Positions 34,645-61,733 of a DNA stretch of 64,000 bases are shown in pieces. Each line of letters opens with the position of its first letter. Position 1 is the first letter of the stretch. This DNA comes from a virus: positions 1 to 64,000 of the IMG/VR virus record IMGVR_UViG_3300043419_000731, one strand, 5' to 3'. The notes beneath the pieces were generated by a model. The model was not told the origin of the DNA. It ran no database searches and was given only the letters and a program-made list of their open reading frames with translations. The position numbers and the translations under genes are program-made.

Positions 34645-34672
34645 ACACCTGAGCATGTGTTTAAAAGGCTCA
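34645..34672 (+). ncRNA. H-type pseudoknot motif, copy A
   Basis: ACAC-CTGAGCAT-GTGT-TTAAAAG-GCTCA; two homologous copies at 60193 and 61706 with covarying stem. Confidence 0.7.
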
Positions 34673-34690
34673 CTATAGAAAAGGGAAGCA

Positions 34691-34873
34691 ATGCCAGTAT
34701 ACGAATATAAGTGTGAATGCAATGATAAGGTTGTTCCATTCAACATGTCAATTAAAGACTATCAGCCTAATCAAACCTGTGTTGATTGTGGTAAAGATAT
34801 GCAAAGACATTACACGCCAACAGGAATTCAGTTTAAAGGTAATGGCTTCTACAAAACAGATAATCCTAAGTAG
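34691..34873 (+). CDS. FmdB-family zinc-ribbon protein
   Basis: 'MPVYEYKC.C...C.DCG....FKGNGFYKTD'. Confidence 0.85.
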   Translation: MPVYEYKCECNDKVVPFNMSIKDYQPNQTCVDCGKDMQRHYTPTGIQFKGNGFYKTDNPK

Positions 34874-34940
34874 TTTAAACTAACATTCTGCTATAATTAC
34901 TAAGTAATCAAAAATATTGCATTACTTAGGGGATCCTTAG

Positions 34941-37289
34941 TTGACTAGAAAGATTAAGTATTATCTAACCAGCCTTTTTATAATCGGCTGGCTTTTCCTT
35001 TTTGGACCTAGCATAGCAAGTGCTGATGAAGTTACTGTTCAAGTAACACCAGTAAATCCTTCTTCAGATACCGCCACAGCAACCACTCCTATTACAGTTG
35101 AGATAGTTGCAAATAAAGTAGAAGCAGCAGAAACAACACTACAGGCAGCAGCACAAACACAAAGCAATGCGATCATATCTGCAATTCAGGCAAATGTTCC
35201 AAATACAGACACTCAGACTGCTACTCAAATTGCTACAACTCAAGAGCCGATTGCAACTGCGGTTGCAGAGGCTACAGTCAAGGTTCAAGAGGCTAATAAT
35301 GTAATTCAATCTGCTGAGACAGCAGTAACAGTTGCAGTAACTGCCCAAGCAGCGGTTGAATCACAAACTGCTGTGGTTGCTACAGCAATTACAACAGTAG
35401 AGTCAGCCACAGCAGTAGTTGCTACTGCAACAGAGAATGTAGTATTGGCAACAGCAGCTGTAGAATCTCAAACAGCTGTAGTACAATTAGATACGCTGGC
35501 TGTAGCAGAAGCACAATCTACTGTACAAGAATTCACCAGTCCTGGATTAAAAGTAGAAGTTTACAATGTACAGGGTCAGAACAACGCTCCAGTACTTCCA
35601 GACAATGCTGTTCCTATTCATACAACTGTTGACACTAACGGGATTAATGAGCAATGGGGTGGCGGAAACGTCGCTGGTTCTAACCGTAGTGAGGATGTAA
35701 TTGTTAAATACACAGGAACTTGGACGCCTTCAGTTGATGTAACTCATGTTCTTGCTCCAGCAGATGATGGTGTAAAACTTTATCTTGATGGTCAGATTGT
35801 TATTAACGACTGGTATGATAAAGGCGGAGGAGGAAGCGTTAATCAGGTTTCTGTATCCGCTGGAACTAGCAAAGCTTTTGAGTTGTGGTACTACGAAAAC
35901 GGTGGTGGTGCTGGTGTTTGGTTCTACCGTTATAACTCATTAACAGGCTGGATAATAGCACCTGGTTCTGAGTTTTCTCAATCATCTGCCAGCCCAGAAC
36001 AGTTAGCGGCACTACAAGCTGCTCAGAACATTCTTGCTAGTGATACGGCAGTACTAACAACCCTCACAGCAGAAAAAACAGAGGCTGAAACAAATCTAAC
36101 AAACGCTCAATCAAACCTAACATCTGCTGAAACAAACCTAACAACAGAACAACAAAACCTCACAATAGCAAATCAAAACCTAACAATTGCTATTCAGACA
36201 GCAGATTCTTTTGCAAATACAGCAACAACAAAAGTAAATGAAGCAGTAACTGCAATGACAAATGCGGCACAGGTTACAGTTAATTATTATGCAGAGCAAC
36301 AAGCAGCAGCACAGGCCGCTGCAAATGCAGCAGCGGAAGCTGCAGCGCAAAGAGCAGCTGCACAAGTAGCAGCAACGGAAGCTGCCGCCAAAGCAGCAGC
36401 GGAAGCTGCAGCAAAGGCAGAAGTAGAAGCCAAAGCAGCAGCGGAAGCTGCAGCAAAGGCAGAAGCAGATCGTGTAGCCGCAGAGGAAGCCGCTGCTAAA
36501 GCAGAGGCTGATCGTGTAGCAGCAGAAGAAGCTGCAGCAAAGGCTGAAGTTGAAGCAAAAGAACAAGCAGAAGCAGATGCTAAGGCTGAAGCAGATAGAT
36601 TAGAAGCAGAGGCAAAAGCGGCAGCTCAGGCAGAAGCAGATGCTAAGGCTGAAGCAGAGGCAAAAGCTCAAGAAGAAGCAAACGCTAAAGCAGAAGCGGA
36701 GGCTAAAGCACAAGAAGCAGCAGATGCAAAAGCAGAAGCTGAAGCAAAAGCTGCAGAGCTAGAAACGGCAAAAAAAGAAGCAGAAAAATTAAAGAAAGCA
36801 GCAGCGGAAGGAAAGTTAAGTGAAGAGCAAAAGGAAGTTGTTGTAGAAAAACTACTTGAATCAATTGAGCCTGGAAAAACAGTTTCATCTGCAGATATAA
36901 AAGCAGCAGGCGTATCTTATTCCGATTTACCACCAACAACACCAGTAGATGTTCGTACTGATGAAAATGGAAATGCGGTTGTAATTACCGCAGCAGTTGC
37001 TGCTCAAGTAGAATTACTACAAAACCCAGGAGCTCTTGTAGAAGAATTATTTACAAATCCAGCGGCAGCATTAGCTGCATTTGGAAGTATAGGTGCAGAT
37101 ATGTCAGATGAAGAAAGAGAAGAAGCAACAGACATGGTTGTTGCTACAGTTGTAGCAGCAGGTGCAGCAATTAACGCAGCAGCAGTTGCTACAGGAGGAG
37201 CCACTGGAGGTGGCACAGGAGGCGGAGGAAGTTCTGGTGGAGGCTCAGGAGCAAATTCACCAGGTTCACGAGGAGGAAGAAGATGGTAA
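34941..37289 (+). CDS. Large secreted / membrane-anchored protein: signal peptide, Ala/Thr-rich stalk, PA14 domain, AEAKA coiled-coil repeats, C-terminal hydrophobic segment
   Basis: TTG start; PA14-like 'ADDGVKLYLDGQIVINDW..YYENGGGA'; K/E/A repeats; Gly-rich end. Confidence 0.75.
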   Translation: MTRKIKYYLTSLFIIGWLFLFGPSIASADEVTVQVTPVNPSSDTATATTPITVEIVANKVEAAETTLQAAAQTQSNAIISAIQANVPNTDTQTATQIATTQEPIATAVAEATVKVQEANNVIQSAETAVTVAVTAQAAVESQTAVVATAITTVESATAVVATATENVVLATAAVESQTAVVQLDTLAVAEAQSTVQEFTSPGLKVEVYNVQGQNNAPVLPDNAVPIHTTVDTNGINEQWGGGNVAGSNRSEDVIVKYTGTWTPSVDVTHVLAPADDGVKLYLDGQIVINDWYDKGGGGSVNQVSVSAGTSKAFELWYYENGGGAGVWFYRYNSLTGWIIAPGSEFSQSSASPEQLAALQAAQNILASDTAVLTTLTAEKTEAETNLTNAQSNLTSAETNLTTEQQNLTIANQNLTIAIQTADSFANTATTKVNEAVTAMTNAAQVTVNYYAEQQAAAQAAANAAAEAAAQRAAAQVAATEAAAKAAAEAAAKAEVEAKAAAEAAAKAEADRVAAEEAAAKAEADRVAAEEAAAKAEVEAKEQAEADAKAEADRLEAEAKAAAQAEADAKAEAEAKAQEEANAKAEAEAKAQEAADAKAEAEAKAAELETAKKEAEKLKKAAAEGKLSEEQKEVVVEKLLESIEPGKTVSSADIKAAGVSYSDLPPTTPVDVRTDENGNAVVITAAVAAQVELLQNPGALVEELFTNPAAALAAFGSIGADMSDEEREEATDMVVATVVAAGAAINAAAVATGGATGGGTGGGGSSGGGSGANSPGSRGGRRW
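36387..36465 (+). repeat. 37-bp exact direct repeat (42-bp period) within AEAKA region
   Basis: GCCAAAGCAGCAGCGGAAGCTGCAGCAAAGGCAGAAG at 36387 and 36429. Confidence 0.85.
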
Positions 37290-37462
37290 GAATAATAAAG
37301 AATATCCTAAAGGATATGGTAGACCAAGCATGGACGCTTCTCGGTATGTTTATTGCTTGGGTAGTTCTGGACGGAAGTGCAAAGACAATTGTTGGATATG
37401 GAATTATAGCTACAACTGCCCTTTGGATTATTACAAGCCCGATCAGAAATAGAGAGGAATAA
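37283..37462 (+). CDS. Two-TM membrane protein (59 aa)
   Basis: MVRIIKNILKDMVDQAWTLLGMFIAWVVLDGSAKTIVGYGIIATTALWIITSPIRNREE; read manually. Confidence 0.7.
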   Translation: MVRIIKNILKDMVDQAWTLLGMFIAWVVLDGSAKTIVGYGIIATTALWIITSPIRNREE

Positions 37463-37464
37463 AA

Positions 37465-37755
37465 ATGGCAAAAGCGTATATTGAAGAACCGCAGCATGTA
37501 GGCGGAGGAGCAATTGCAAGCATAAATAATATTATTGCTAGAATTGTAGCTGTATTTGCAGCTTCTGGACTTTCAGTAATTGGAGCAGGTGCAGTAGTTG
37601 GAATTAGCACAGCTAAAGCAGTAATTTTAGCAGGAACTTTAGGAGTAGCAACAGTAGTTGAAAAGCTTGCTCGTGGATTTCTAGATGATGGCAAATTAAC
37701 TGTAGATGAGATTAATGCAGCATTCTCAGCAGTAGACAAAAAATCTGCTAAGTAA
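37465..37755 (+). CDS. Membrane protein (holin-like candidate)
   Basis: Two hydrophobic segments and charged C-terminus. Confidence 0.55.
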   Translation: MAKAYIEEPQHVGGGAIASINNIIARIVAVFAASGLSVIGAGAVVGISTAKAVILAGTLGVATVVEKLARGFLDDGKLTVDEINAAFSAVDKKSAK

Positions 37756-37770
37756 TGATATAATTAGAGC

Positions 37771-37920
37771 ATGAATAAATATCGCATAAAATTAGATGTA
37801 GAGGTAGAAGTAGAAGCCTTTAATGCTGAAGATGCAAGCGAATATATTCATGATATATTTAATATAGATGACGAAATTAAAAAGATTAATATCGTAAAAA
37901 TATCACCATTAAATCATTGA
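37771..37920 (+). CDS. Hypothetical protein (49 aa)
   Basis: MNKYRIKLDVEVEVEAF...; TGaTATAAT 6 nt upstream. Confidence 0.6.
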   Translation: MNKYRIKLDVEVEVEAFNAEDASEYIHDIFNIDDEIKKINIVKISPLNH

Positions 37921-37961
37921 CAAGGCCACTGTACAGAGTGTATAATTATACAGTACAGTGG
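37917..37961 (+). promoter_or_regulatory. tRNA promoter TTGACA-N18-TATAAT within inverted repeat CCACTGTAC...GTACAGTGG
   Basis: TTGACA 37917-37922; TATAAT 37941-37946; arms 37926-37934 / 37953-37961. Confidence 0.65.
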
Positions 37962-37973
37962 TTTTGTGCATAT

Positions 37974-38046
37974 TGGTCCATAGCTCAGTTGGTAGAGCGC
38001 CAAACTGTTAATTTGGATGTCCCAGGATCGAGACCTGGTGGACCAG
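37974..38046 (+). tRNA. tRNA-Asn(GTT)
   Basis: CCAAA-CTGTTAA-TTTGG; T-loop ATCGAGA (A54). Confidence 0.88.
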
Positions 38047-38051
38047 CATAT

Positions 38052-38133
38052 GCCCGAATGGTGGAATCGGTATACACGACAGACTTAAAATTTGTTGCTT
38101 CACAGCATGTCGGTTCAAGTCCGACTTCGGGTA
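38052..38133 (+). tRNA. tRNA-Leu(TAA)
   Basis: ACAGA-CTTAAAA-TTTGT; variable arm present. Confidence 0.9.
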
Positions 38134-38152
38134 CTAGAAAAGGTAAAGTAAT

Positions 38153-38386
38153 TTGTTACATTTAACGGAGAAAGGTGTTGAGATTTTTATCAAAAGGTCT
38201 CAATCAAAAACACAAGATTCATTTTGGAATAACTATGACCTTGTGATTTGGAAAAAAGATAACGGCGGCTATAGTTCTGTTGACGGAATGTATAGAAAAG
38301 ATGCTTGGGGCAAGTCAGAAAAAATTTCTGTCAGCCGTGAAGGAATTTGGAAGCTGCCAAAAAAATATGTCAAGTATTTTAAATAA
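38153..38386 (+). CDS. Hypothetical protein
   Basis: ORF track; TTG start. Confidence 0.55.
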   Translation: MLHLTEKGVEIFIKRSQSKTQDSFWNNYDLVIWKKDNGGYSSVDGMYRKDAWGKSEKISVSREGIWKLPKKYVKYFK

Positions 38387-38678
38387 TTTAGGTATAGAAA
38401 AAGAAGATCCAAAATGGTGGGACCTTGCGCTATGTAAAGGCATGGATACCAATCTATTTTTTGATAAATATGAATCAGATATCAACATCGCAAAAAGCAT
38501 TGATGAGGCATGCTTGTCTTGTCCAGTAATAAAGATATGCCATGATAGCGGGATTGAAAATGCAGATTATGGGGTATGGGGTGGAGTATTCCTAAGCTCT
38601 GGATCAGTTGATAAATCTAGAAATGCACATAAGACTAAAGATGTGTGGAGAAGAATAAAGGAAAAACATGTTTATTGA
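38367..38678 (+). CDS. whiB: WhiB-family Fe-S transcription factor
   Basis: 'W...ALCKG.DTNLFF', 'ACLSCPV...C', 'YGVWGG'. Confidence 0.88.
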   Translation: MSSILNNLGIEKEDPKWWDLALCKGMDTNLFFDKYESDINIAKSIDEACLSCPVIKICHDSGIENADYGVWGGVFLSSGSVDKSRNAHKTKDVWRRIKEKHVY

Positions 38679-38988
38679 TAAGAACAAGAATCATTTTAAA
38701 TATGGAATTAATGAATGGACTGGTGAGCCAAATAAACCAGTATTCTATAATAAAGCAATGGCTCTAAAGATAAGAGAGTTAGCAAAGCCAACAAGTGCTT
38801 TGCAGATGGATATAGTCAAGTATCCAGAGTTTTTAGCTATAAGGTTATATGAAGATAACTTTGCACAATTTGATGGCTCAATGAGAGTCAGAGTAATAGA
38901 ATATGTAGAAATGGTAAAAAATATCTTGGAATCATATGGAGTAAGAGTTGAGCTTGAAGGAAAGCCAGGAGGAAAGAACAATGGATAA
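38668..38988 (+). CDS. Hypothetical protein
   Basis: Coupled ORF. Confidence 0.65.
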   Translation: MFIDKNKNHFKYGINEWTGEPNKPVFYNKAMALKIRELAKPTSALQMDIVKYPEFLAIRLYEDNFAQFDGSMRVRVIEYVEMVKNILESYGVRVELEGKPGGKNNG

Positions 38989-39217
38989 GGTATTATGCTA
39001 CTCATGCAATAAGAGTAAAAATGAGCTAACTGCCAAGAAATCTTCGCTATTAGCAATCAACCTGTTGCTATGCAAGACATGCACAGAGAATAAGCTTGAG
39101 CCCCGCTGGATAGTTATCCTGGCTGGAAGACAATATGGCGCAGATCATGTTAAAGAGTTTATTGCTAAAAAGCGATATGTTGGCTTAGACATAACTGCAT
39201 CTGAATTATTAATCTAA
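38981..39217 (+). CDS. Zinc-binding hypothetical protein
   Basis: 'CYSC...CKTC'; GGAGG RBS; ATG 38981. Confidence 0.65.
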   Translation: MDKVLCYSCNKSKNELTAKKSSLLAINLLLCKTCTENKLEPRWIVILAGRQYGADHVKEFIAKKRYVGLDITASELLI

Positions 39218-39246
39218 TATAGATATTACGGTATAATATTCATATA

Positions 39247-39561
39247 ATGAATATTACTACGCAAATAATTATAACCTTATTTGCCGCTTCTATAAGCGGC
39301 TTGCTCACAGCGCAAGTAAATTCTAGAAGATTAAAAAAAGAAAAAGCTATTCAGGCTGCAGATAAAGCCCATGACCAGCTTTTACTTGAGGTAAAAGATC
39401 TTCAGATTAAGCTATATAAATTAGAAAAAGACTTGACCGAATGGAAGGAAAAGTATTTTGAGGCCCTTCAAGAATTAATTAAAGTCAAAGGCGAGCTAGA
39501 AAAGACTATGATTAGGCTCAGCCATGTAGAAATACATGAGGAAGAATTAAACGATATCTAG
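39247..39561 (+). CDS. N-terminal TM + coiled-coil protein
   Basis: Hydrophobic N-terminus, heptad-rich C-terminus. Confidence 0.65.
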   Translation: MNITTQIIITLFAASISGLLTAQVNSRRLKKEKAIQAADKAHDQLLLEVKDLQIKLYKLEKDLTEWKEKYFEALQELIKVKGELEKTMIRLSHVEIHEEELNDI

Positions 39562-39593
39562 CACTTCGAATTTATATTTAGTATACTAGAATC

Positions 39594-40151
39594 ATGACAT
39601 GTATAGTAGCCATTGCCCAAAATGGGGTAGTTTATATGGGATCAGATCACGCAGCATCAGATGATAAGACTGGATGGATACTTTCACGCAAAGAGCCAAA
39701 ATGTTTTAAAGTTGGACAGTATGGCGTTGCGTTTACAGATTCATTTAGAATGGGACAAATCTTACAGTACTCATGGGTCCCACCAAAGTACACTCCTACA
39801 AAAACAAACTCTGGATTAGATAAGTTTATGAGAACAAAGTTTATTGATTCAGTCAAGCAAGCATTCAAAGACGGCGGTTATGGAAGCATAGGGTCATCAT
39901 CCGATGAAGACACTGGAGGAATCTTTATTGTTGGAGTTGAAGGAAGAATCTTTACAATCGACGAAGACTTTCATGTTGGAGAAAATGTTGTTAACTACAT
40001 GGCGGAAGGCAGTGGTGGTCAGATAGCACTAGGAGCCTTATACGCAACAAAGAATCAAAAGAACCCTAAGCTAAGGCTAAAGGCTGCCCTAGAAGCTGCT
40101 ACAGAGTTTAACATGAGCGTAGCAGCCCCATATACATACATTCAAGTTTAG
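39594..40151 (+). CDS. Ntn-hydrolase / HslV-proteasome-beta-like peptidase
   Basis: N-terminal 'MTCIV' nucleophile Thr, 'GSD', 'GSGGQIALGAL', 'AA..FN.SV..P'. Confidence 0.8.
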   Translation: MTCIVAIAQNGVVYMGSDHAASDDKTGWILSRKEPKCFKVGQYGVAFTDSFRMGQILQYSWVPPKYTPTKTNSGLDKFMRTKFIDSVKQAFKDGGYGSIGSSSDEDTGGIFIVGVEGRIFTIDEDFHVGENVVNYMAEGSGGQIALGALYATKNQKNPKLRLKAALEAATEFNMSVAAPYTYIQV

Positions 40152-40165
40152 TGTATAATTGAGTT

Positions 40166-40522
40166 ATGAAAACTTTCATAGCAGCATTGTCAGCACTTGG
40201 TTTATTTTCTGCATTCAAATCATTTAGATCAAGATATGCTGTAGGCATTTATTATATTGACAAGCTTGAAGAGGTTCAAGAGCAGATCAGAAAGGCCACT
40301 GGCCCATTTGATATAAATGATCTTAAGCCAGAAAACTATGACAACGCTATGGATGTCAGAGGCACCCCAACACATCTTTGCCCATGCGGTTGCAACATAT
40401 GGAATGTCAAGGTTATATTTGAAGACTTTGAGGTTGCAACATACTTCCTGGATATGGAATGCGCTAATTGTGGGACAATGGCGACAGCACCAACACTATT
40501 AGATAAAGAAAAGATGGAATGA
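40166..40522 (+). CDS. Hypothetical zinc-binding protein with N-terminal hydrophobic segment
   Basis: 'HLCPCGC...CANCG'. Confidence 0.65.
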   Translation: MKTFIAALSALGLFSAFKSFRSRYAVGIYYIDKLEEVQEQIRKATGPFDINDLKPENYDNAMDVRGTPTHLCPCGCNIWNVKVIFEDFEVATYFLDMECANCGTMATAPTLLDKEKME

Positions 40523-40656
40523 TTAAAAATAAAAAGATTAAAGAATTAGATAAAAAGATATTCGAGTTAGAGGCTAGGCTGGCTATTATGGAGTTACAGC
40601 TAAATAGTCTTATTATAAGCCAAAATCTAGATCTCGACGCAGAAAAATGGTACTAG
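40519..40656 (+). CDS. Small coiled-coil protein (45 aa)
   Basis: Read manually; ATGA overlap. Confidence 0.5.
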   Translation: MIKNKKIKELDKKIFELEARLAIMELQLNSLIISQNLDLDAEKWY

Positions 40657-40660
40657 AATA

Positions 40661-40697
40661 CTATTGACAATCTACTATTATTTAGTAGAATTAAGGC
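40661..40697 (+). promoter_or_regulatory. Promoter CTATTGACA-N16-TAGAAT, 6 nt before ATG 40698
   Basis: TTGACA 40664-40669; TAGAAT 40686-40691. Confidence 0.7.
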
Positions 40698-41819
40698 ATG
40701 AATAAAAAACTAATAACTGTATTACTATCACTATCATTTATTGTGCCTATGGCGGTACATGCTAACGCTGCTCCAGCAGCCCCAACGATTGCTATCCTAG
40801 ACACAGCTCTGGACTCATCGCTACCAGCATTTCAGGGCAAGGTAATTCAAGAAGTTTGCATTCTTCAGTTCGGCCTATGCCCAAATAATCAGTCATTTAT
40901 GGAAGGCCCAGGAGCAGCAGCAATGTCTGCTAACACAATCACTATGAACGGATTTGATCATGGTACTCAAATGGCATCTGTATTTGTTAAAACAAATCCA
41001 AATGCCAATATTGTATTCATTAGAATTATTGGAGATAAGGCAGGAGTTCGTCAGCCAGCAGGGGAGCCAACAGTATATAACGCTCTTAACTGGGTAAAAG
41101 CAAATGCATTAAAGTATAACATTCAGGCAGTAAGTATGTCGCAAGGCCACCATAATATTGGTGCAGCGGGAACAGATTATTGTCCAAAGACTCCAGTAAC
41201 TGAGCAGGCAGTAAAAGACCTTACGGCAATGCAAATTCCAGTGTTCTTTCCTTCTGGAAATGGTCGTGATTACTCACGTATTGATTGGCCAGCATGCCTA
41301 GATGTTTCAGTTTCTGTAGGATATACAGATCAGCAGGGAGAAATTTCTTCTTCTAGCAATAACGATGCAACAAAGCTTGACTTCTTTGCACTAGGATTTT
41401 TTACAAGCGCAGGTCCAGGTAATGTTCTAAAGAATATCTCAGGCTCATCTTCTGCTACACAGGTAATGGCAGCAAACTGGATTGCATATAAAACTGCAAA
41501 GCCAACTGCTACATATCAAGAAACTTTAGATGCATTCAGAAGTACTGCAGTTTCTACCGTTGGCCGTCAAGGAAAGTTTAATAAGCTTGTTGACTTAAAT
41601 AAAGCATTATCATATACTTCAGCCAAGCCCTCTGCACCAAGTGCAGCGGAACTTGCAGCAGCAGAAGCAGCAGCGCAGGCAGCAGCAAAAGCTGCCTTAC
41701 AAACACAAGTGAATGCTGCAATTGCAGCAGCAGAAGCACAGTATCAAATTGAATTAAAGGCTGCACAAGATAAGCTTGCTGCAACAAAGGCGACATGGTT
41801 GGCAAAACTCAATGGCTGA
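40698..41819 (+). CDS. Secreted subtilisin-like (S8) serine peptidase
   Basis: Signal peptide; 'IAILDT' (Asp), 'DHGTQMA' (His), 'PSGN' (oxyanion Asn), 'SGSSSA' (Ser). Confidence 0.82.
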   Translation: MNKKLITVLLSLSFIVPMAVHANAAPAAPTIAILDTALDSSLPAFQGKVIQEVCILQFGLCPNNQSFMEGPGAAAMSANTITMNGFDHGTQMASVFVKTNPNANIVFIRIIGDKAGVRQPAGEPTVYNALNWVKANALKYNIQAVSMSQGHHNIGAAGTDYCPKTPVTEQAVKDLTAMQIPVFFPSGNGRDYSRIDWPACLDVSVSVGYTDQQGEISSSSNNDATKLDFFALGFFTSAGPGNVLKNISGSSSATQVMAANWIAYKTAKPTATYQETLDAFRSTAVSTVGRQGKFNKLVDLNKALSYTSAKPSAPSAAELAAAEAAAQAAAKAALQTQVNAAIAAAEAQYQIELKAAQDKLAATKATWLAKLNG

Positions 41820-54798: not shown

Positions 54799-55079
54799 GG
54801 ACAAATCGGACATATTTACCCCCATATAGCAGCATATTGATCTAAATTTGTCAAGGGATTTTTTGAGGAATTTTGATCTATTTTGCCATATTCTCTACAG
54901 ATTTGTCGACATTTAATAATGATTATATATTTAATTAGACATATTCTGTAGCATTTTCAGGGGTTTTTGTCAAGCCTTCGTAAATAGAAAAATTTGCCCC
55001 AACTTTCAGGGGTTTTGATCAGCTCTCGTAAATAGAAAATTTTGCCCATATGCCCACAGCATACAAAAAATCCACAGGA

Positions 55080-55100
55080 TGTGGATAACCCTGTGGATAA
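55080..55100. promoter_or_regulatory. Two perfect DnaA boxes (TGTGGATAA = TTATCCACA rc)
   Basis: 55080-55088 and 55092-55100. Confidence 0.7.
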
Positions 55101-55156
55101 TTTGGGCAATATATGTTTATCTATATCACCAGGCATTCTTCTCTCATTGTATATGC

Positions 55157-55528: not shown

Positions 55529-55613
55529 CTGTCCGCCTTCCGCCTAACTGTCGATTATATCAAAAATAAGAGAGGGGGTCAAGGACCAACGAAGCCTGGA
55601 CCCCCACCCTGAA

Positions 55614-55763
55614 TTACTTTGCCTTGTTGCTTGGTGTTTCTGCAGTAAACTTAATACCCTTGGCCTCTGCCTCTGCTAGAGCTACCTTAGCTGCTCCTGA
55701 GAAACGACCACGCACACCTACTGTAATGCCCTGCTGCTTTAGATATTCACGCTTTGTTGCCAT
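55614..55763 (-). CDS. Lsr2 C-terminal DNA-binding-domain-like microprotein (49 aa)
   Basis: MATKREYLKQQGITVGVRGRFSGAAKVALAEA...; RGR AT-hook-like loop; GAAAGGGG RBS. Confidence 0.6.
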   Translation of the reverse strand: MATKREYLKQQGITVGVRGRFSGAAKVALAEAEAKGIKFTAETPSNKAK

Positions 55764-55855
55764 TTGATTATCCCCTTTCAAGAGATGTTATTTGTACTAA
55801 TTATATAAGATATCCACGATTTTGTAAATACCTTCGTAACATATTTTTTTTGCCC

Positions 55856-55996
55856 TTAGATCAAATTGACTTGCTCAACTCGATCTTTAATTAATTTAGC
55901 AATGATGTTATGGGCTTCGATGTTTTCTGTTTCTGACCCACCCCATAGCAATTGCTGTGCTTTATTTAATTGATCATTGATGTACTCATCACTCAT
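55856..55996 (-). CDS. Hypothetical microprotein (46 aa)
   Basis: Read manually; overlaps upstream stop. Confidence 0.55.
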   Translation of the reverse strand: MSDEYINDQLNKAQQLLWGGSETENIEAHNIIAKLIKDRVEQVNLI

Positions 55997-56363
55997 CTTC
56001 ATCTTCGTCCTCATCCCCGTCATATAGTTCGATGATACCTTCTTCGGTCATCCAGTCCCGTACGGCCTCATAGAGGTCCTCTGTGCCATACTCCAGTGTG
56101 AACCCGTTCTTGTCAGCCTGCGTGAAGAACAGTTCCCACATTTCTTCTTCATCCTTGGCTGTACAGTAATCAGGGTCTCCGCCCTGCATAATGTCAGTCC
56201 AGATAGATAGCGCTACATCCCATGTCCACACCCAAACCAGGGGAGGGAAGACCCCTAGTTCACCAATCTTATCTACAATTAAAGTAATATCCTTGTAGAC
56301 ATCCTTCATTCGTGTACTTTCTTGTAGGTCTAATTGATTACTCATTACGTTCTCCAATCGCAA
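55989..56363 (-). CDS. Hypothetical acidic protein
   Basis: ORF track. Confidence 0.6.
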   Translation of the reverse strand: MRLENVMSNQLDLQESTRMKDVYKDITLIVDKIGELGVFPPLVWVWTWDVALSIWTDIMQGGDPDYCTAKDEEEMWELFFTQADKNGFTLEYGTEDLYEAVRDWMTEEGIIELYDGDEDEDEDE

Positions 56364-56607
56364 ATGATAGTTGATATGTTAGATTATATAAAGATACTAA
56401 TGTATCAAGGGCACCTTCACATCTTGTGCGGTCCATAGAGTCCATGGCTTCTTCTGATTCATCTTCAATTGCTTGTGCTTCTGCCAACTCCTGCTCAGCA
56501 ATGAGCATTAGATTCTTTAGTTCACCGTGCATGATGTCAAGGCCTGATACTCCTGCGTTGACCATGCGCTGTAGGTGTGGCGGTAGTCCGATGTCTTCTG
56601 AATTCAT
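56338..56607 (-). CDS. Hypothetical helical protein
   Basis: MNSEDIG start with AAGGAG RBS. Confidence 0.6.
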   Translation of the reverse strand: MNSEDIGLPPHLQRMVNAGVSGLDIMHGELKNLMLIAEQELAEAQAIEDESEEAMDSMDRTRCEGALDTLVSLYNLTYQLSFAIGERNE

Positions 56608-56738
56608 TACATATCTCCTTCTGATAGAGTTAGCCAAGTAGTACAGTATTTGCAGTGGTCCATTTTTAGCGGGGAAGTAACAGAATGAGTACTATCAATA
56701 ATAGACTCAATCTTGTCTAGAACATCATCCAATGTCAT
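56607..56738 (-). CDS. Hypothetical microprotein (43 aa)
   Basis: Read manually; follows TGTCAG promoter. Confidence 0.5.
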   Translation of the reverse strand: MTLDDVLDKIESIIDSTHSVTSPLKMDHCKYCTTWLTLSEGDM

Positions 56739-56920
56739 TATTCATACCTTTCGTTTGAAGAGTTCATTATATCAGTGGCCACTGACAAAAGGTGCTTGGT
56801 TGCATAAATCTGTCCTTCTATATCTACCACATGGATAGAACAAGGATTCTCCTCTAGGTCTTGTTCTAAACTAATTAGATGCAACTTCATATATTCTAGG
56901 AAGTATGATGATCGTGTCAT
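56738..56920 (-). CDS. Hypothetical protein
   Basis: ORF track. Confidence 0.5.
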   Translation of the reverse strand: MTRSSYFLEYMKLHLISLEQDLEENPCSIHVVDIEGQIYATKHLLSVATDIMNSSNERYE

Positions 56921-56921
56921 C

Positions 56922-57182
56922 CTATGCCTCCAGCTTCATTCTAATAATGTCATATGCGTCAATCGCACCTGCTGAATAATCATTCATTTCGTTGTCGCCT
57001 TCTTCTTCATATTGCTTACGCAATTCAGTTAGTTCAGCAATTCGACCTTCTGCAAATTTGCGGAGGGTATCAATAACATCTAAAGCAGCACATTCTCCGC
57101 AATAGGCATTGTAGTCTTCTTCTTCTGTATATGGAATAGATGTTCCACAATCATTACACCAAGACTCATCGCGCATTCCCAT
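56922..57182 (-). CDS. Hypothetical zinc-binding protein
   Basis: 'CNDC...CGEC'. Confidence 0.55.
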   Translation of the reverse strand: MGMRDESWCNDCGTSIPYTEEEDYNAYCGECAALDVIDTLRKFAEGRIAELTELRKQYEEEGDNEMNDYSAGAIDAYDIIRMKLEA

Positions 57183-57367
57183 TATTCTCCCCATGGCCCT
57201 TCAATAAGTCCTTCTTGATATGCAGCAATAATATTCATGGTTTCATGAAGAATGCAATCGCAATCTCCACCGTTCATGTTTTCCATAAATTCAAAATGAG
57301 AATAGTTATCCTCATAGATAGCAGTAACTAGTTCATGAATTGCATATGGTTTTGTATCACTCTTCAT
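57182..57367 (-). CDS. Hypothetical protein
   Basis: ORF track. Confidence 0.55.
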   Translation of the reverse strand: MKSDTKPYAIHELVTAIYEDNYSHFEFMENMNGGDCDCILHETMNIIAAYQEGLIEGPWGE

Positions 57368-58085
57368 TTGATTCTACCTTTCGATATTCAGGGACATTGG
57401 TTTCTAAGTATATAGCATGGGTCTGACATCCTGCGACAGACTCTAGGTCTGCCTCACCAAGCCAGTTACATTTAGAACAGATTTGATTGTCACAATCTTC
57501 ACACCACTCTAGGGTATCAATAGCATCACAATCACGGCACTTAGTGTCATATTCTGATTCTGAGATAACTACACCACGGAGAATCTCACATTCTCCACCC
57601 CAGCCTGTTTCTTCCTCATATGATAAAGTAAATAGTAATGTTGGGTATTGTGCAGATAGTTTTTGTAGGGCAGGCATAGGGCGTGACCATGCTGTATTAA
57701 AGTTATAATAAACTACTTTGTTATCGCCATTAGCGACAGGCCCTTCAATATATGTATCAGGAAACTTTTCTAGTTCAGATACAGCCACATCCCATTTGGT
57801 ACCCCATTCACGGTTATTGAAGTTGTACCAATCGTTGCCCTCAAATGCCAAACTAAACTTTTCGGGGAAGACAGGTTGCGAATGATATGCATCAAGGTCG
57901 GTAGGTGCAATAATGTTGCGGAAACTAAAGATAGGATTAGGATACTTGCGTTGTTCCACAGAATAAGCCAAATCACCATTAGGTTTAATAGAATCTACAA
58001 ATGGTGTATTCATCTGTTCAACTAATTTATCTACTTGCTCAGGATTACCCTCAATAGTTAATCCATTATATACCCAGTTTGGCAT
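57357..58085 (-). CDS. DUF1281/Api92-like ferredoxin-fold protein with C-terminal Cys cluster
   Basis: 'MPNW..N.L.I.G', 'WYNFN..EWGTKWD', 'F.TAWS.P', 'YEEE.GW.G'. Confidence 0.7.
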   Translation of the reverse strand: MPNWVYNGLTIEGNPEQVDKLVEQMNTPFVDSIKPNGDLAYSVEQRKYPNPIFSFRNIIAPTDLDAYHSQPVFPEKFSLAFEGNDWYNFNNREWGTKWDVAVSELEKFPDTYIEGPVANGDNKVVYYNFNTAWSRPMPALQKLSAQYPTLLFTLSYEEETGWGGECEILRGVVISESEYDTKCRDCDAIDTLEWCEDCDNQICSKCNWLGEADLESVAGCQTHAIYLETNVPEYRKVESNEE

Positions 58086-58264
58086 ATTTATCCTTTCGTT
58101 TGATATATGAGAATTATACACTGGACCACTGACAAATGGAATACATATGCCCTGTGTTCTACACCACATGGATCAGAGCTGATCCCATATTGTGAAATTT
58201 TCAGGGAATTTACTTGACACCCGTAAAAGAGATATGTTACCCTCAGTCTTTGCGGGCAAATAGA

Positions 58265-58290
58265 AATCCCCCAGTCAAAGCTGGGGGATT
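58265..58290 (-). terminator. Intrinsic terminator-like hairpin
   Basis: AATCCCCCAG-tcaaag-CTGGGGGATT, followed on minus strand by TTTCTATTT. Confidence 0.7.
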
Positions 58291-58425
58291 ATGAATATGG
58301 CTGCCTGGATTTCCAACGAAAGAAATAAACCCGCTTTACTTAGCACCTGGCCCGTAGACTAGTAGATGCACCATTTCATTTCCTATTAAAACCAGGACCC
58401 AAGGTCCTGGATTAATTATAGCATA

Positions 58426-58791
58426 TTACTCAACTGAAACTAGGGAGTACTTGTCTACAAAGGATGAGAGACTAGTTGAAAATACTTCCGTAGTCAGGTC
58501 CTCTTCCATTAGTGTAAATGTCTTCTTATTCCAGTCAATGATTGGTACCCTGTGCTCATTATCTGCTAACTCATTAACGGTAATGCCCCAGCCAGTGGTT
58601 GACTGCCATTCTTCATTAATTAAATTAGAGATAGCAATGCGTGTTGCATATGATTCATCAGACCACCTTGGCTCTGCTGCTCGTACAGCGCTAGCCAAAT
58701 TCTGCAACATCATGTGCCCCGCCCAGTGTCCATACAAAAACACTGTATCGCCCTTGCGGTCTTTAAACCCAAAGTTTGCTCTGTCGCCCAT
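58426..58791 (-). CDS. Hypothetical protein (MGDRANF...)
   Basis: ORF track; 'YGHWAG', 'YATRI' conserved-looking motifs. Confidence 0.7.
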   Translation of the reverse strand: MGDRANFGFKDRKGDTVFLYGHWAGHMMLQNLASAVRAAEPRWSDESYATRIAISNLINEEWQSTTGWGITVNELADNEHRVPIIDWNKKTFTLMEEDLTTEVFSTSLSSFVDKYSLVSVE

Positions 58792-58792
58792 T

Positions 58793-58990
58793 TTATTCCG
58801 CCGTTTCTAGTTGTGGTGTTACTTCTACCTTGTTCAATTCTATCACTTCATAGGCCGCTCTGTCTAGGCCCCTTTTATTGCTGTTATAATGATGGCCACA
58901 GAAAGCAAGCTCTCCGCCAACTAGTTTAACTAGATACATAGAGTCTGCAGATCCGCAGGCATCGCATGGAATATATTCTCTATCTCTCAT
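58793..58990 (-). CDS. Zinc-binding hypothetical protein
   Basis: 'CDACG...FCGHH'. Confidence 0.7.
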   Translation of the reverse strand: MRDREYIPCDACGSADSMYLVKLVGGELAFCGHHYNSNKRGLDRAAYEVIELNKVEVTPQLETAE

Positions 58991-59133
58991 AGAGAGCCAC
59001 CCTCAATCATTTCTGCAAGGCGGTCAAGAATCCATGTATCGATATCAGCGATATCAATCTCTGCAAGCTTTTCCATAAGTTCCTCACGAGCAAACTTATA
59101 TCCATCCTCAAAGCCATCTTTATAATCTGACAT
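58987..59133 (-). CDS. Hypothetical microprotein (48 aa)
   Basis: MSDYKDGFEDGYKFAREE...; AGGAG RBS. Confidence 0.6.
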   Translation of the reverse strand: MSDYKDGFEDGYKFAREELMEKLAEIDIADIDTWILDRLAEMIEGGSL

Positions 59134-59141
59134 CTTATCTC

Positions 59142-59345
59142 CTAATATCCTGTCGCTTCTTTATCTGACCAGTATGATTCTGTTAAACCATACTTATCAC
59201 GAATGCGACTTACTTTCTCAATACTACCAGTTCCGATATTGAATGTCAATGGTCCGCATTGTTCTGGGTCCAAACCAATCAACTCCGCTTCCCAGGTAGC
59301 CCGTGCAAAGGCTACCTGAGATGGAGCAGTTAATTCAAAATACAT
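59142..59345 (-). CDS. Hypothetical protein
   Basis: ORF track. Confidence 0.6.
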   Translation of the reverse strand: MYFELTAPSQVAFARATWEAELIGLDPEQCGPLTFNIGTGSIEKVSRIRDKYGLTESYWSDKEATGY

Positions 59346-59959
59346 TAGTACGCACCTTCTTCTACTCGGTCAATCTCAAAGTTATTCACAGACATTTCTG
59401 ATGCATATGAATCAACAGTTAGATTAGAAGATACAAAGTCTTCGATACCGTCAAAGTCACCTGTCAAATCAACTTCAACAGTTGCATCAACACGAACCCA
59501 AACAGTAACTTCAATTTCCTTGGTTAGAGGAACATCGAACATCTCTGCAATCTCAGCCAATGATTCTTGGTCTGATGAATCTGCGTAGTTCTCTTCAAGG
59601 AATGTACGGAGTTGTGATTCCTTGCGGTACCACTGGTTCTGCTTCTCAGTAAGATTCTTAAGTTGCCAAACCATGTGACGAATATCTGATTCAGTATATG
59701 TTTTAGTAATTAGGTCATCACCCTCGACCCACTGCAACTGCATTGTTACTGGTGTTGTTGTTTCTTCCATTGTTTCCTCTTTCGTTGTTGTTGTAGAAGG
59801 AATTGTAGCATCGACCACTGACAAAAGGATGCAGGCGGTCCCGCATCTGCAAGTGAGGTCCATCACACCATTAGGCCATCCATAGCCATCCTTAAATGTG
59901 TATTCAATTAATGCATCACAATCACCTGGGCATATCCAGGTATATTTCTGATAGTTCAT
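59345..59959 (-). CDS. Hypothetical protein with an in-frame internal start at 59770
   Basis: Both ATG 59959 and ATG 59770 have their own TGTCAG promoter and GAAAGAGG RBS. Confidence 0.65.
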   Translation of the reverse strand: MNYQKYTWICPGDCDALIEYTFKDGYGWPNGVMDLTCRCGTACILLSVVDATIPSTTTTKEETMEETTTPVTMQLQWVEGDDLITKTYTESDIRHMVWQLKNLTEKQNQWYRKESQLRTFLEENYADSSDQESLAEIAEMFDVPLTKEIEVTVWVRVDATVEVDLTGDFDGIEDFVSSNLTVDSYASEMSVNNFEIDRVEEGAY

Positions 59960-60111
59960 TTTCCCTCTTTCGTTGTATAGGAGTATTATAGGGCATAGCA
60001 CTGACAAATGGAATAGTTTTCAGGGATTTTCTTTGTGATCCGTAACACAAAAAACTGGCCTTCCCTATTGCGGGCGCATACTTATGCATTGATATGCATA
60101 AATATGTTTTG

Positions 60112-60185
60112 CGATCCATAACGGACTTGAACCGTCGACCTCTACCGTGACAGGGTAGCGCTCTAACCAACTGAGCTAATGGACC
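60112..60185 (-). tRNA. tRNA-Asp(GTC)
   Basis: rc cloverleaf; CTACC-CTGTCAC-GGTAG. Confidence 0.92.
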
Positions 60186-60192
60186 AATAAGG

Positions 60193-60220
60193 TGAGCAGT
60201 TTTAAATCTTGCTCAGGATT
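60193..60220 (-). ncRNA. H-type pseudoknot motif, copy C
   Basis: AATC-CTGAGCAA-GATT-TAAAACT-GCTCA. Confidence 0.7.
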
Positions 60221-60228
60221 ATTTTTAT

Positions 60229-61233
60229 TTAGAAAGTTGCAACCATTCGATACAACTTATTTTTTTCTGCGGTAAGAACAGGGTCAAATCCTGATGCACC
60301 CGCCATAAGTGATTCAGAGTTGCCACGCCCTGAACGATAGTAATCTAGGCGCTCAGTTAGCGCATTGAATGCGCCCCACTTTGTGCCCTTGATTGTGGCG
60401 TTAGTTGGTGAGTTATGATAAAGGTCATCGATTAGGACAACTTTATTTTCCCACTTCTTGATTGCGCCCTTAGCATCTTTCTCAGGCTTTGGATAGATTG
60501 TCTGAATCAACTTTGAGAATTCAGCATCGGTGATTGCTTGAGAATAAAGTGCTTGAGCATTCTTCTCAAATTCATCAAAGTATCCAAGCGCAAGCCCAAG
60601 AGTTTCACGAGCAACTTGAATGCGACCTTCAACAGATTGCGTGTGGCGAATCTTGAAAGATTGCTTAGCGCTCTTCATTGCAAGGTTGAGAGTGTTTTGG
60701 CATACAACACGAACAGGGGTAACCGCTGCTTGAACAGCAACAGAACCATCGTGTGATGTCCATACGATTAGATATAACTTGGTTTCGTCATTGGCGCCTT
60801 GTGGGTCAAGAACCATTGTGCGAGGAATATCCACAGTGCCGAATACAACTTTGCCCTGCTTAAGAGAACCAGCAGATTCCCAACGGCAGTCAGCGTTAGC
60901 ATCGTGAATTGCATCAGCGAATGCAAACAATTCTTCATTCTGCACAGGCTTGTAGCGCTTACCAACAGTAGCAAGAACATCAGTTCCGCCATTGAATGGG
61001 TTATCACGCAACACGAGAGATGCAGTTGAAACATCATTCCAAGATTCTGGAATATGCTCAGCGATTGGAGAAAGACGAACATTCCAATTTGCTAACTTTG
61101 CTTCTTCAAGCATTGTTGCAGTTGTAACTTCTTCATCTTGTGTAAAGATGCGGTTTGCAAGGTTGTGCCAAGCAGGAGCACCACGGAGAGCGAATGCAAC
61201 TTCGCCATTTTCGACTTCGAGATTATGAGCCAT
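60229..61233 (-). CDS. DUF932/DUF945 phage-plasmid protein
   Basis: 'MAH......AWHNL', 'Y.PVQN.E.F', 'ESAGSL..G..VF', 'SHDGS', 'RVVC.NTL', 'IRHT'. Confidence 0.85.
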   Translation of the reverse strand: MAHNLEVENGEVAFALRGAPAWHNLANRIFTQDEEVTTATMLEEAKLANWNVRLSPIAEHIPESWNDVSTASLVLRDNPFNGGTDVLATVGKRYKPVQNEELFAFADAIHDANADCRWESAGSLKQGKVVFGTVDIPRTMVLDPQGANDETKLYLIVWTSHDGSVAVQAAVTPVRVVCQNTLNLAMKSAKQSFKIRHTQSVEGRIQVARETLGLALGYFDEFEKNAQALYSQAITDAEFSKLIQTIYPKPEKDAKGAIKKWENKVVLIDDLYHNSPTNATIKGTKWGAFNALTERLDYYRSGRGNSESLMAGASGFDPVLTAEKNKLYRMVATF

Positions 61234-61410
61234 TTTTTGCCTTTCGTTTGGTTGATTAAGCAATTATAACAGGTGGGTCTGACATTTACAAGGTTAGTTA
61301 GTCATTTGTCCGAATTGTCTGACGTGATCAATCTCACAAATTTTCAGGGTTTTCCACAGATCCCCGTAACGCTGTGGATAACCCCGCAAAAGCGGGGGCC
61401 GAGCTGGGGA

Positions 61411-61671
61411 TTAACTCCCCAACTCTACCTTAGTCGCATTTCGAATTATGTTTTTATTAAATTCAACTGTCTTCTCATCAAGAAACATTGCAGTTGTCTT
61501 TTTCTTTTTTACATTATCAAAAACGTAAGCATTTACTTTGCCGCTAAAGTTTCTGATGTTACTGAATACTAATTCAGTTAAGTATTCTTTATCAACACCT
61601 TGATCCGAATAAATCGTGATGTCGTTCATTTTGTTTGCATCGTAGATTTCTACTCTGAAACGATTTGCCAT
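61411..61671 (-). CDS. Hypothetical protein
   Basis: ORF track. Confidence 0.6.
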   Translation of the reverse strand: MANRFRVEIYDANKMNDITIYSDQGVDKEYLTELVFSNIRNFSGKVNAYVFDNVKKKKTTAMFLDEKTVEFNKNIIRNATKVELGS

Positions 61672-61705
61672 TGTATTACCTTTGTTAGTAGTTGTCCCCG
61701 AAGGG

Positions 61706-61733
61706 AGAGCAGTTTGGCGACATACTCAGGTCG
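61706..61733 (-). ncRNA. H-type pseudoknot motif, copy B
   Basis: CGAC-CTGAGTAT-GTCG-CCAAACT-GCTCT. Confidence 0.7.

Follow-up and report, generated by a model that had tools for sequence, protein, structure and literature searches.

A 28-nt H-type pseudoknot behind the stop codons of phage and bacterial genes

What does a 28-nt RNA motif do when it recurs three times in one phage genome, each time with a different gene? Here we describe the motif in a window of 64,000 nt (the whole stretch of DNA analyzed), its fold and conservation in other genomes, its position relative to genes, and the functions that it could have there.

Three copies in one phage record

The pattern CCTGAGNANGNNNNNAAANNGCTC has exactly three matches in the window, and the same three are all that the 120,465-bp phage record contains; about 1e-4 exact matches are expected by chance (15 fixed bases, 128 kb of two strands). 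Scored with a covariance model (CM), copies A, B, and C reach 41-46 bits, against 13.5 bits for the next match in the window. All three have the layout 4-8-4-7-5 and lie where the first-pass annotation had placed them. Its distances to the preceding stop codons (48, 9, and 8 nt) and from copy C to the tRNA (7 nt) were also correct. The copies and their neighbors are as follows.

34180..34596, plus strand: hsp20 gene, stop 48 nt before copy A
34645..34672, plus strand: pseudoknot copy A, 43.5 bits; stem 1 ACAC/GUGU, stem 2 UGAGC/GCUCA
34691..34873, plus strand: FmdB-like zinc-ribbon gene, 60 aa, start 18 nt past copy A
61743..62159, minus strand: gene of unknown family, 138 aa, stop 9 nt before copy B
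61706..61733, minus strand: pseudoknot copy B, 41.3 bits; stem 1 CGAC/GUCG, stem 2 GAGU/GCUC with a G-U pair
61695..61706, minus strand: small hairpin with a UUCG loop (UCCC-UUCG-GGGA), directly adjoining copy B on its 3' side
61411..61671, minus strand: 86-aa gene, start 34 nt past copy B, behind a conserved leader
60229..61263, minus strand: DUF932 gene (phrog_1221), stop 8 nt before copy C
60193..60220, minus strand: pseudoknot copy C, 46.5 bits; stem 1 AAUC/GAUU, stem 2 UGAGC/GCUCA
60111..60185, minus strand: tRNA-Asp(GTC), 5' end (the RNase P cleavage site) 7 nt past copy C

Copies B and C are 1.5 kb apart within one co-directional gene string. Stem 1 differs in sequence yet pairs in 3/3 copies, and stem 2 of copy B does contain a G-U pair, both as first noted. 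The linker of copy A has AG at its end in place of CU. Several of these arrangements recur in related loci. The A-type cassette, in which the knot and the zinc-ribbon gene are spaced by 18-19 nt, is also present in L031, L051, L059, L073, L092, and L106. Genes for hsp20 lie at most 25 nt upstream of the pseudoknot in six related loci, and the DUF932 family is found upstream in 18/104. At the UUCG hairpin of copy B, compensating changes keep the pairing in orthologous loci (L025, L026, L060, L070, L102, L108, and L113).

Fold and covariation

The first-pass annotation had proposed a cis-acting H-type pseudoknot RNA, which is strongly supported by the covariation of the stems, by a loop-stem triple, and by the way the motif follows gene orientation. 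Scans of viral contigs and bacterial genomes yielded approximately 300 further copies, and covariation is seen in both helices. Pairs 3-16 and 4-15 of stem 1 (alignment A1 numbering) form in 139 and 140 of 140 copies, respectively, drawing on four pair types, and the covariation score of 0.432 (0.121 in shuffles) was reached by none of 500 shuffles. A search with stem 2 left free found 18 non-consensus versions with 5/5 pairs, for example UAGGC/GCCUA, UGGAC/GUCCA, and UGGGU/ACCCA, where fewer than one (approximately 0.3-0.5) would be found by chance. Base 18, in the linker, covaries with pair 2-15 (MI 0.36), being A with A-U or U-A and U with C-G. Since both stems and this base-pair combination covary, the motif is a compact H pseudoknot of the triplex type in which eight bases are nearly invariant. 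These bases are C4, C5, U6, A11, G13, and A19-21; among the 97 copies that did not trigger retrieval, 95-97 retain each of them.

Stem 1 consists of 4 bp of free sequence closed by the invariant C4-G13 pair, which is present in 140/140 copies and in 96/97 of the non-trigger copies. The knot crossing is a single base, C5. Stem 2 has 5-6 bp, formed by UGAGY with GCUCA, and A11-U23 can extend it. We propose that the A-rich linker of 6-7 nt is placed in the minor groove of stem 1. Its AAA is invariant and is followed by CU in approximately 80% of copies, with AG replacing CU in 23/159. Past the knot, C is enriched at both bases 3' of A28.

Position and neighbors

According to these scans, the knot occurs in hundreds of unrelated phages and bacteria, and its conserved bases are held across many phyla. 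Copy numbers are low, at 1-8 per phage, with one copy each in Labelle, S-RIM4, and ParKuw1. Phage Patience has a long hairpin after the same gene where its relative Labelle carries the knot. The knot lies behind a gene on its own strand and starts 5 nt or more past the stop codon. This limit is a sharp wall: 21 viral and 17 bacterial copies lie at exactly 5 nt, almost none are nearer, and the mode is 5-9 nt. In spacers of at least 100 nt, the knot is closer to the upstream stop in 52/66 cases. Under stringent criteria, there are five convergent arrangements (gene, knot, opposing gene) and no divergent ones. A tiny ORF terminates within the knot in two bacterial classes, and in the bacterial small-ORF class a separate terminator-like hairpin lies past it. 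By its positions, the knot is a gene-end element, and the context links it with the 3' end of the gene before it, not with the RNA that follows. The roadblock and processing-signal functions suggested in the first-pass annotation fit a genomic context of this kind, but the context is the 3' end of the upstream gene, not a downstream RNA.

RNA-cutting sites (tRNA 5' ends and hammerhead cleavage sites) are found 3-12 nt downstream of the knot. A same-strand tRNA is downstream 25 times, 19 of them at 3-12 nt, and upstream only twice; many of these cases are orthologous DUF932-knot-tRNA-Asp loci and hence not independent events. Type III hammerheads begin 0-4 nt past the knot in L131 (twice) and L007, and by our reading of the sequences their cut sites would be 5-12 nt past it. 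The order in L131 is ORF-stop-knot-hammerhead-ORF-stop-knot-hammerhead. A U-tract, defined as 5 or more U within the next 8 nt, follows 24% of viral and 14% of bacterial copies, compared with 6-7% in control spacers. Promoter- or operator-like sequences of the next unit are present past several copies (L079, L008, and L099).

Relation to known RNAs and possible functions

The search of Rfam 15 recommended with the first annotation matched no family at the gathering score, nor did a relaxed search of the surroundings of the three window copies with E allowed up to 10. We found no report of the knot in phages in the literature. Among eukaryotic virus elements, coremin (xrRNA-C; Dilweg et al. 2019) has a linker AAACU that is essential by mutagenesis, with A16-A20 in BNYVV (PMC6546385), and coremin of beny-, cucumo-, and other RNA viruses blocks both Xrn1 and scanning ribosomes (Dilweg et al. 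2023, PMC10520033). The phage knot shares with coremin a hairpin of 3-5 bp with a C-G closing pair that coremin requires (4 bp here) and a loop that starts with a pyrimidine and contains GA. Conversely, the coremin loop is YGAD or YGNNAD, whereas here it is an 8-nt CUGAGYAW with G as its third base rather than its second. Four to five of these loop bases form Watson-Crick pairs with the 3' strand, while coremin is without a Watson-Crick stem 2, and the coremin spacer is 10 nt long (8-10 nt with an essential AAACUA in the general definition) compared with the 7-nt linker here. Coremin also needs a hairpin directly after the spacer for Xrn1 resistance, which is not a rule for the phage knot: a hairpin starts within -2 to +4 of the knot end in 23/155 viral and 15/122 bacterial copies, against 36/155 (viral) and 22-34/122 (bacterial) control windows. 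Among the window copies, B has such a hairpin.

The Watson-Crick variant xrRNA-WCC, described for Sanxia picorna-like virus 5 and for selected variants, is a viral element at which Xrn1 stalls and which promotes frameshifting (Dilweg et al. 2023, PMC10321173). It resembles the phage knot in being a very small H-type knot with a short C-G-closed hairpin, a one-base crossing, and GAG-CUC pairing after an A-rich UUAAA-type linker. The antiparallel Watson-Crick stem 2 from the loop to the spacer end is also common to both, as the 18 compensated variants indicate for the phage knot. The phage knot differs in its hairpin loop (8 nt vs 4), its stem 2 (5-6 bp vs 3), and its crossing base (C vs G), has no obligatory second hairpin after it, and lies directly behind the stop codons of DNA-phage genes. 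To our knowledge, bacteria and phages, the hosts of the present knot, have no Xrn1.

Luteovirus-type frameshifting pseudoknots (BWYV, PEMV) are H-type knots of 26-28 nt with an A-rich loop in stem 1 minor-groove triples and a conserved crossing-loop C. Size, layout, A-rich loop, and crossing C are common to the phage knot, but the latter follows a stop codon, has no slippery heptamer in overlapping ORFs, and has a longer stem 2. Coremin-type elements drive -1 frameshifting (PMC6546385; PMC10520033; PMC10321173). We rejected a role of the phage knot as a -1 frameshift stimulator: information content upstream of it is approximately zero, and a stop codon rather than a heptamer lies 5-9 nt upstream. 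A ToxI-type (type III) antitoxin, for which pseudoknot repeats in tandem beside an endoribonuclease toxin gene would be expected, was likewise rejected, as the copies are dispersed at distances of 1.5 kb and 26 kb from one another, each behind a different gene, with no Rfam match.

REP elements, T7 RNase III-processed hairpins, and the cry1A positive retroregulator are 3'-terminal stabilizers of bacterial and phage mRNAs that stop 3' exonucleases. We propose the same role for the knot, which processing would leave behind as the 3'-terminal structure of the upstream cistron, though these stabilizers are long GC-rich plain hairpins of free sequence and the knot has 28 nt with a fixed cross-phylum core. 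Somewhat short of even confidence, we favor a protein-free cap that, folded beside the terminating ribosome, would keep 3'-5' exonucleases away from the newly made 3' end of the upstream message. The observed fold, conservation, position rules, and neighbors are what this reading draws on. The knot would fold immediately on transcription and would sit just outside the mRNA channel of a ribosome terminating at a stop at least 5 nt upstream, so that translation would not unwind it. The transcript would then be cut or ended a few bases downstream. At a tRNA the cut would fall to RNase P and at a hammerhead to the ribozyme itself; in the G-poor, U-rich flank, RNase E/Y would be the probable enzyme, and the transcript could also end at a U-tract. 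Any of these events would leave the knot as a 3'-terminal structure with a tail of only 3-12 nt, barring 3'-to-5' exonucleases (PNPase, RNase II/R) from the coding region. We infer the protection itself and the enzymes that would be involved.

Several points count against the cap. The nested folding energy of the knot is modest (-4 to -6 kcal/mol, with copy A no better than shuffles), and coremin-type knots, which appear to be its closest characterized relatives, block enzymes from the 5' side, not the 3' side. Because copy numbers are low, the knot is not a general message cap. The A-type cassette fixes 18-19 nt to the zinc-ribbon start, with window copy A 48 nt from the upstream stop, and many of the tRNA cases are not independent. 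In the two bacterial classes whose tiny ORF terminates within the knot, the ribosome has to open it.

A possible but less likely function is a coremin-like roadblock to machines moving 5' to 3', such as RNase J, scanning RNase E, and ribosomes passing the stop or sliding after termination. A downstream RNA (tRNA precursor, ribozyme, or next cistron) would in this way stay unaffected when the upstream cistron is degraded or translated. The design is like that of coremin and its Watson-Crick variant, with a C-G-closed hairpin of 3-4 bp, a one-base crossing, GAG-CUC pairing, and an AAACU linker end. A 5-nt wall past stops would be expected of a structure that ribosomes hardly open, and the stem 1 triple would stiffen the side met first from the 5' end. 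However, with a tRNA or hammerhead downstream, cleavage would part the knot from the RNA to be protected, five convergent gene ends have nothing downstream to protect, and the knot follows ORFs and almost never tRNAs (25 vs 2). The second hairpin required by coremin is not enriched, at the 23/155 vs 36/155 given above. RNase J was not found in either of two genomes with the knot, MAGs of a Polynucleobacter and of a Cellvibrionaceae member, both of which may be incomplete.

It is unlikely that the knot is a recognition or processing signal, bound by a conserved host enzyme or protein that cuts in or beside it. RNase P (with the stacked stems as an acceptor-arm mimic), RNase E/Y, and the small zinc-ribbon protein are candidates. 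Eight near-invariant unpaired or closing bases across many phyla would suit such recognition, but the triplex fold itself also accounts for them. The knot adjoins RNA-processing elements, and the C enrichment after A28 is loosely like a discriminator followed by CC, yet a T-loop is missing and the coaxial stack is short, at 9-10 bp. The FmdB-like zinc-ribbon gene is linked to the knot in A-type cassettes, whereas Labelle, S-RIM4, and ParKuw1 have the knot and no PF09723 gene. A cut within the knot would also destroy the conserved structure.

Less probable again is an RNA polymerase signal, either a substitute for a terminator hairpin before U's or a gene-end pause or anti-termination signal. 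Enrichment of U-tracts 2-3.5-fold directly past the knot, the promoter- or operator-like sequences past the L079, L008, and L099 copies, and the existence of convergent gene ends would be consistent with this, but a U-tract is missing from 76-86% of copies. Copies B and C share one co-directional string, with C 7 nt before a tRNA that needs transcription, and the bacterial small-ORF class has its own terminator-like hairpin past the knot. An intrinsic terminator was rejected, as the U-tract frequency is above control but not the rule.

A ligand-binding or catalytic RNA, whether a preQ1-I-like mini-riboswitch or a very small self-cleaving ribozyme, is highly improbable. In its favor, the knot adjoins hammerheads and combines many phyla, a pseudoknot, and many conserved bases, which Weinberg et al. 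consider signs of demanding function (PMC5737381). It also shares with preQ1-I (RF00522) a length of approximately 30 nt, the H-type layout, a variable stem 1, a loop that is conserved, an A-rich tail lying in the groove of stem 1, and a 3' strand that pairs with the hairpin loop. Against it, the knot has no sequestered ribosome-binding site (the site is outside the knot), no alternative-structure platform, and no consistent downstream gene class (tRNA, ribozyme, and unrelated ORFs). No riboswitch or ribozyme CM of Rfam 15 matched it even when E values up to 10 were allowed, and on this ground we rejected both the pseudoknot riboswitches, preQ1-I among them, and the small ribozymes such as pistol. 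The ligand sensor of the first-pass annotation is unlikely because the downstream genes are heterogeneous and an expression platform is absent. We know of no natural ribozyme as small as 28 nt.

More tentatively than the cap itself, the knot could represent the first exoribonuclease-resistant RNA class of bacteria and phages. It would be a universal protein-free boundary element that punctuates polycistronic RNA together with RNase P, hammerheads, and endonucleases, capping the upstream message and maybe halting ribosomes or 5'-3' nucleases, and its structure would either have arisen convergently with the coremin knots of eukaryotic RNA viruses or be related to them. If so, bacteria and phages would have a module of 28 nt, defined by its sequence, that determines where single cistrons in operons end on the 3' side and how long they last, which would explain how tRNAs and ribozymes are embedded in phage operons without loss of the preceding gene. 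It would also connect the RNA biology of phages with the xrRNA and frameshifter knots that eukaryotic viruses carry, and provide synthetic biology with a very small portable part for stabilizing or insulating mRNA. For uncultured phages, the knot offers a ready annotation mark for gene ends.

Fold and covariation of the pseudoknot

The three window copies of the 28-nt H-type pseudoknot RNA motif, here called the knot, lie exactly where the first-pass annotation had placed them, and its distances to the preceding stop codons (48, 9, and 8 nt for copies A, B, and C) and the 7-nt gap between copy C and tRNA-Asp are also correct. A 15-base core pattern finds these three matches in the window and the same three in the whole 120,465-bp record, with none besides. 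Covariance model scores are 41–46 bits for copies A–C versus 13.5 bits for the next window match. Matches with three mismatches at 41199 and 58020, together with a match at 26384, were rejected as copies, being within coding sequence and without stem 2.

Copies and parts of the knot
34645-34672, + strand: copy A, after hsp20
61733-61706, - strand: copy B
60220-60193, - strand: copy C, between a DUF932 gene and tRNA-Asp
Knot nt 1-4: stem 1, 5' strand
Knot nt 5-12: loop
Knot nt 13-16: stem 1, 3' strand
Knot nt 17-23: linker
Knot nt 24-28: stem 2, 3' strand

Judged from sequence, the fold is real, and the structural case for it rests on covariation. Stem 1 was assessed in 140 distinct copies. Pair 3-16 (numbered by the columns of alignment A1) is formed in 139 of them and pair 4-15 in all 140, with GC, CG, AU, and UA all frequent; the outer pair is formed in 113. 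The stem 1 covariation score is 0.432, compared with 0.121 for shuffles (0 of 500 reach 0.432) and 0.03–0.10 for slid partners. Because the first retrieval pattern fixed stem 2, a second search left it free. This returned 62 non-consensus matches, about 48 of which are expected noise according to a reversed-sequence control; all five stem 2 pairs are present in 18 of the 62, with 0.3–0.5 expected by chance. In each stem 2 variant, between one and three pairs are compensated; examples are UAGGC/GCCUA, UGGAC/GUCCA, UAGAC/GUCUA, UGGGU/ACCCA, UAAGC/GCUUA, and UGAAC/GUUCA. Both stems stay paired in homologs through compensating changes.

Mutual information links linker base 18 to pair 2-15, with A accompanying A-U or U-A and U accompanying C-G; this covariation is the signature of a putative minor-groove triple. 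C4, C5, U6, A11, G13, and A19–A21 are kept in 95–97 of the 97 copies that did not trigger retrieval. Linker nt 22-23 are CU in 132 copies and AG in 23, including copy A, with mixtures hardly ever seen, and no partner position accounts for this switch across all copies. No conservation was found beyond knot nt 1-30. Nested energy models give only a weak hairpin at knots, and their energies are uninformative.

Position at gene ends and downstream neighbors

The knot is oriented with its genes and starts at least 5 nt past the stop codon of an ORF on its own strand. The wall is sharp, with a mode at 5–9 nt: 21 viral and 17 bacterial copies lie exactly 5 nt from the stop, and only one or two lie closer. 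In 52 of the 66 cases with spacers at least 100 nt long, the knot is closer to the upstream stop. Across copies, its distance to the next start codon spreads broadly from 9 to 380 nt. The preceding stop is TAA in 79 of 104 and TGA in 6 of 104. Upstream genes are diverse, with DUF932 (18/104) and Hsp20 (6/104) recurring as they do in the window, and a strict gene-arrangement test gave five convergent cases and no divergent ones. When the stop codon occupies the A site, the first pair of a knot with a 5-nt spacer is positioned near +12, counted from the P site. That position falls just outside the ribosomal helicase site reportedly described by Takyar et al. in 2005, so the knot can stay folded beside a terminating ribosome. 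A recoding role (readthrough or frameshift) was rejected, as neither the spacing nor the frame is constant and in-frame stops are met further on.

Same-strand tRNAs lie 3' of the knot 25 times, 19 of them at 3–12 nt, and the knot lies 3' of a tRNA only twice. Type III hammerheads begin 0–4 nt past the knot in two other knot-bearing loci, L131 (50.5 and 41.2 bits) and L007 (32.1 bits), with predicted cleavage sites 5–12 nt past the knot. L131 (7271-7620, - strand, a Polynucleobacter-binned contig) has the order ORF, stop, knot, hammerhead, leader, ORF, stop, knot, hammerhead. Self-cleavage here would leave each message ending in the knot plus 5 nt, and the 51-aa ORF between the units would be freed on a monocistronic RNA of its own with a knot at its end. 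The Rfam DUF2800 RNA (RF02960) starts at the base directly 3' of the knot in six loci, in which the knot lies 5–7 nt past a stop codon.

Loci with a DUF2800 RNA directly 3' of the knot
L029, 285-445
L198, 912-1071
L162, 5051-5208 (- strand)
L201
L221
L228

The flank of the knot is poor in G and rich in U, and a U-tract follows 24% of viral and 14% of bacterial copies versus 6–7% of control spacers. After the same gene, phage Patience has a long hairpin (L245, 100-160) and phage Labelle has the knot (L242, 590-626). Similarity between the two stops exactly at the stop codon, which makes the knot the mark of a mosaic junction. The Patience hairpin (GGAUAGGGG...CCCCUAUCC) is upstream of tRNA-Gln. 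At 20–45 nt past the knots of L079, L008, L099, L223, L240, and L196 are recurrent UUUUCGA-type words, TGTGAYC...GATCACA-type palindromes, and DnaA-box-like words (TGTCCACA or TTATCCAC). These words and palindromes are candidate promoters or operators for the early unit that comes next.

In the window, copy C belongs to the common DUF932-knot-tRNA-Asp block, and on the 3' side of copy B are a UUCG hairpin and a conserved leader common to seven related contigs. Copy A lies in a cassette of Hsp20, knot, and an FmdB-like zinc-ribbon gene (PF09723), in which the spacing from knot to downstream start is held at 18–19 nt. A promoter role for copy A, which has a T7-like CACTATAG on its 3' side, was rejected, since stem sequence differs from copy to copy yet the stems stay paired. 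A possible 7-bp hairpin, CUGUACG...CGUACAG, which the energy model does not predict, lies in the gap from the hsp20 stop to copy A (34601-34641, + strand); a short GC hairpin occupies the same place in other zinc-ribbon cassettes (L021, L059, L073, L092, and L094). The window carries eleven tRNA genes, as a cluster of eight (29657-30825), a pair (37974-38134), and tRNA-Asp (60111-60185). Its DUF932 protein shares ~50% identity with the DUF932 proteins of 130-kb Streptomyces phages, and the host may therefore be an actinobacterium.

Some bacterial MAG contigs carry a stand-alone 20-aa ORF, M[KH]RF.[IV]PR.AHC[SD][ED]GC...S*, whose stop is a UGA in the knot loop (L137, L138, L145, L147, L152, L156, L177, L181, L187, L190, L203, L204, L212, L222, and L229). 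It has its own Shine-Dalgarno and promoter-like boxes and a terminator-like hairpin 3'; synonymous changes at the codon level indicate that it is coding, and its neighbors vary (ArsR, MerA-like, SerRS). Separately, Saccharibacteria locus L142 (3754-3830) has a chromosomal leader with a 14-aa uORF stopping at knot nt 16-18, 21 nt upstream of a 138-aa gene of no known family and beside HIT and ValRS genes. This looks like a translation-sensitive leader, and leaders of the type also occur in L123, L150, L168, and L211.

Possible roles of the knot

The position and neighbor rules fit an element of the upstream cistron that is left at the RNA 3' terminus. Our tentative first choice is that the knot acts as a 3' cap, keeping the coding region and stop codon intact once downstream RNA is cut away. 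The tail past the knot would be too short to give 3' exonucleases a hold. The knot may act as a block from either side. Of the window copies, A fits this upstream-cap reading least well.

The main rival, which we consider doubtful, is a coremin-like roadblock acting on machinery arriving from the 5' side, as the closest characterized relatives do. The Watson-Crick coremin variant shares with the knot a short hairpin closed by C-G, a one-base crossing, a GAG/CUC stem 2, and an A-rich linker, and from its 5' side it halts Xrn1, acts as a barrier to scanning ribosomes, and stimulates frameshifting (PMC6546385, PMC10520033, PMC10321173). However, a purely 5'-side role is at odds with RNase P or a hammerhead severing the knot from downstream RNA, with the 25:2 asymmetry around tRNAs, and with the convergent gene ends. 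Also counting against such a role, the second hairpin that coremin requires is not enriched 3' of knots, and two knot-bearing genomes, MAGs of Polynucleobacter and Cellvibrionaceae that may be incomplete, have no RNase J (TIGR00649) match. The latter also weakens RNase J as a universal target.

Ranking below both the cap and the roadblock, a processing signal or protein site seems improbable, a terminator or polymerase signal more so, and a riboswitch or ribozyme very improbable. The zinc-ribbon protein was rejected as an obligatory partner, since PF09723 is missing from three complete knot-bearing phages and roughly one in two zinc-ribbon genes in the loci lacks an upstream knot.

Spread and novelty

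An exact-pattern scan of IMG/VR matched at least 119 contigs, several with 3–5 same-strand copies. A stricter 19-base pattern matched at least 119 contigs among bacterial genomes and MAGs, with about four chance matches expected; the matches listed include Saccharibacteria, Actinomycetes, Chloroflexota, Desulfobacterota, Bacteroidota, Bacillota, Cyanobacteria, Pseudomonadota, and Omnitrophota. Cultured Mycobacterium phage Labelle, cyanophage S-RIM4, and T7-like Paracoccus phage ParKuw1 carry one copy each. One bacterial match is a CRISPR spacer containing the knot, within an array of eight 37-nt repeats in a Cloacimonadota MAG (array at L166, 5039-5599), indicating that knot-bearing DNA is targeted by host immunity. 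A Leptolyngbyaceae contig (L165, 5980-6096) resembles this case.

No Rfam family matched the knot, whether at gathering score or with E relaxed to 10. A literature search covering knot sequence words, phage pseudoknot motifs, and bacterial xrRNAs found no description of it, nor is it mentioned in the text of either a phage structured-RNA catalogue from 2023 (PMC10690425) or Weinberg 2017 (PMC5737381). Eukaryotic RNA viruses already provide precedents for the fold type and for the roadblock idea. Neither Rfam 15 nor the searchable papers contain a pseudoknot with a defined sequence that sits at gene ends in DNA phages and bacteria.
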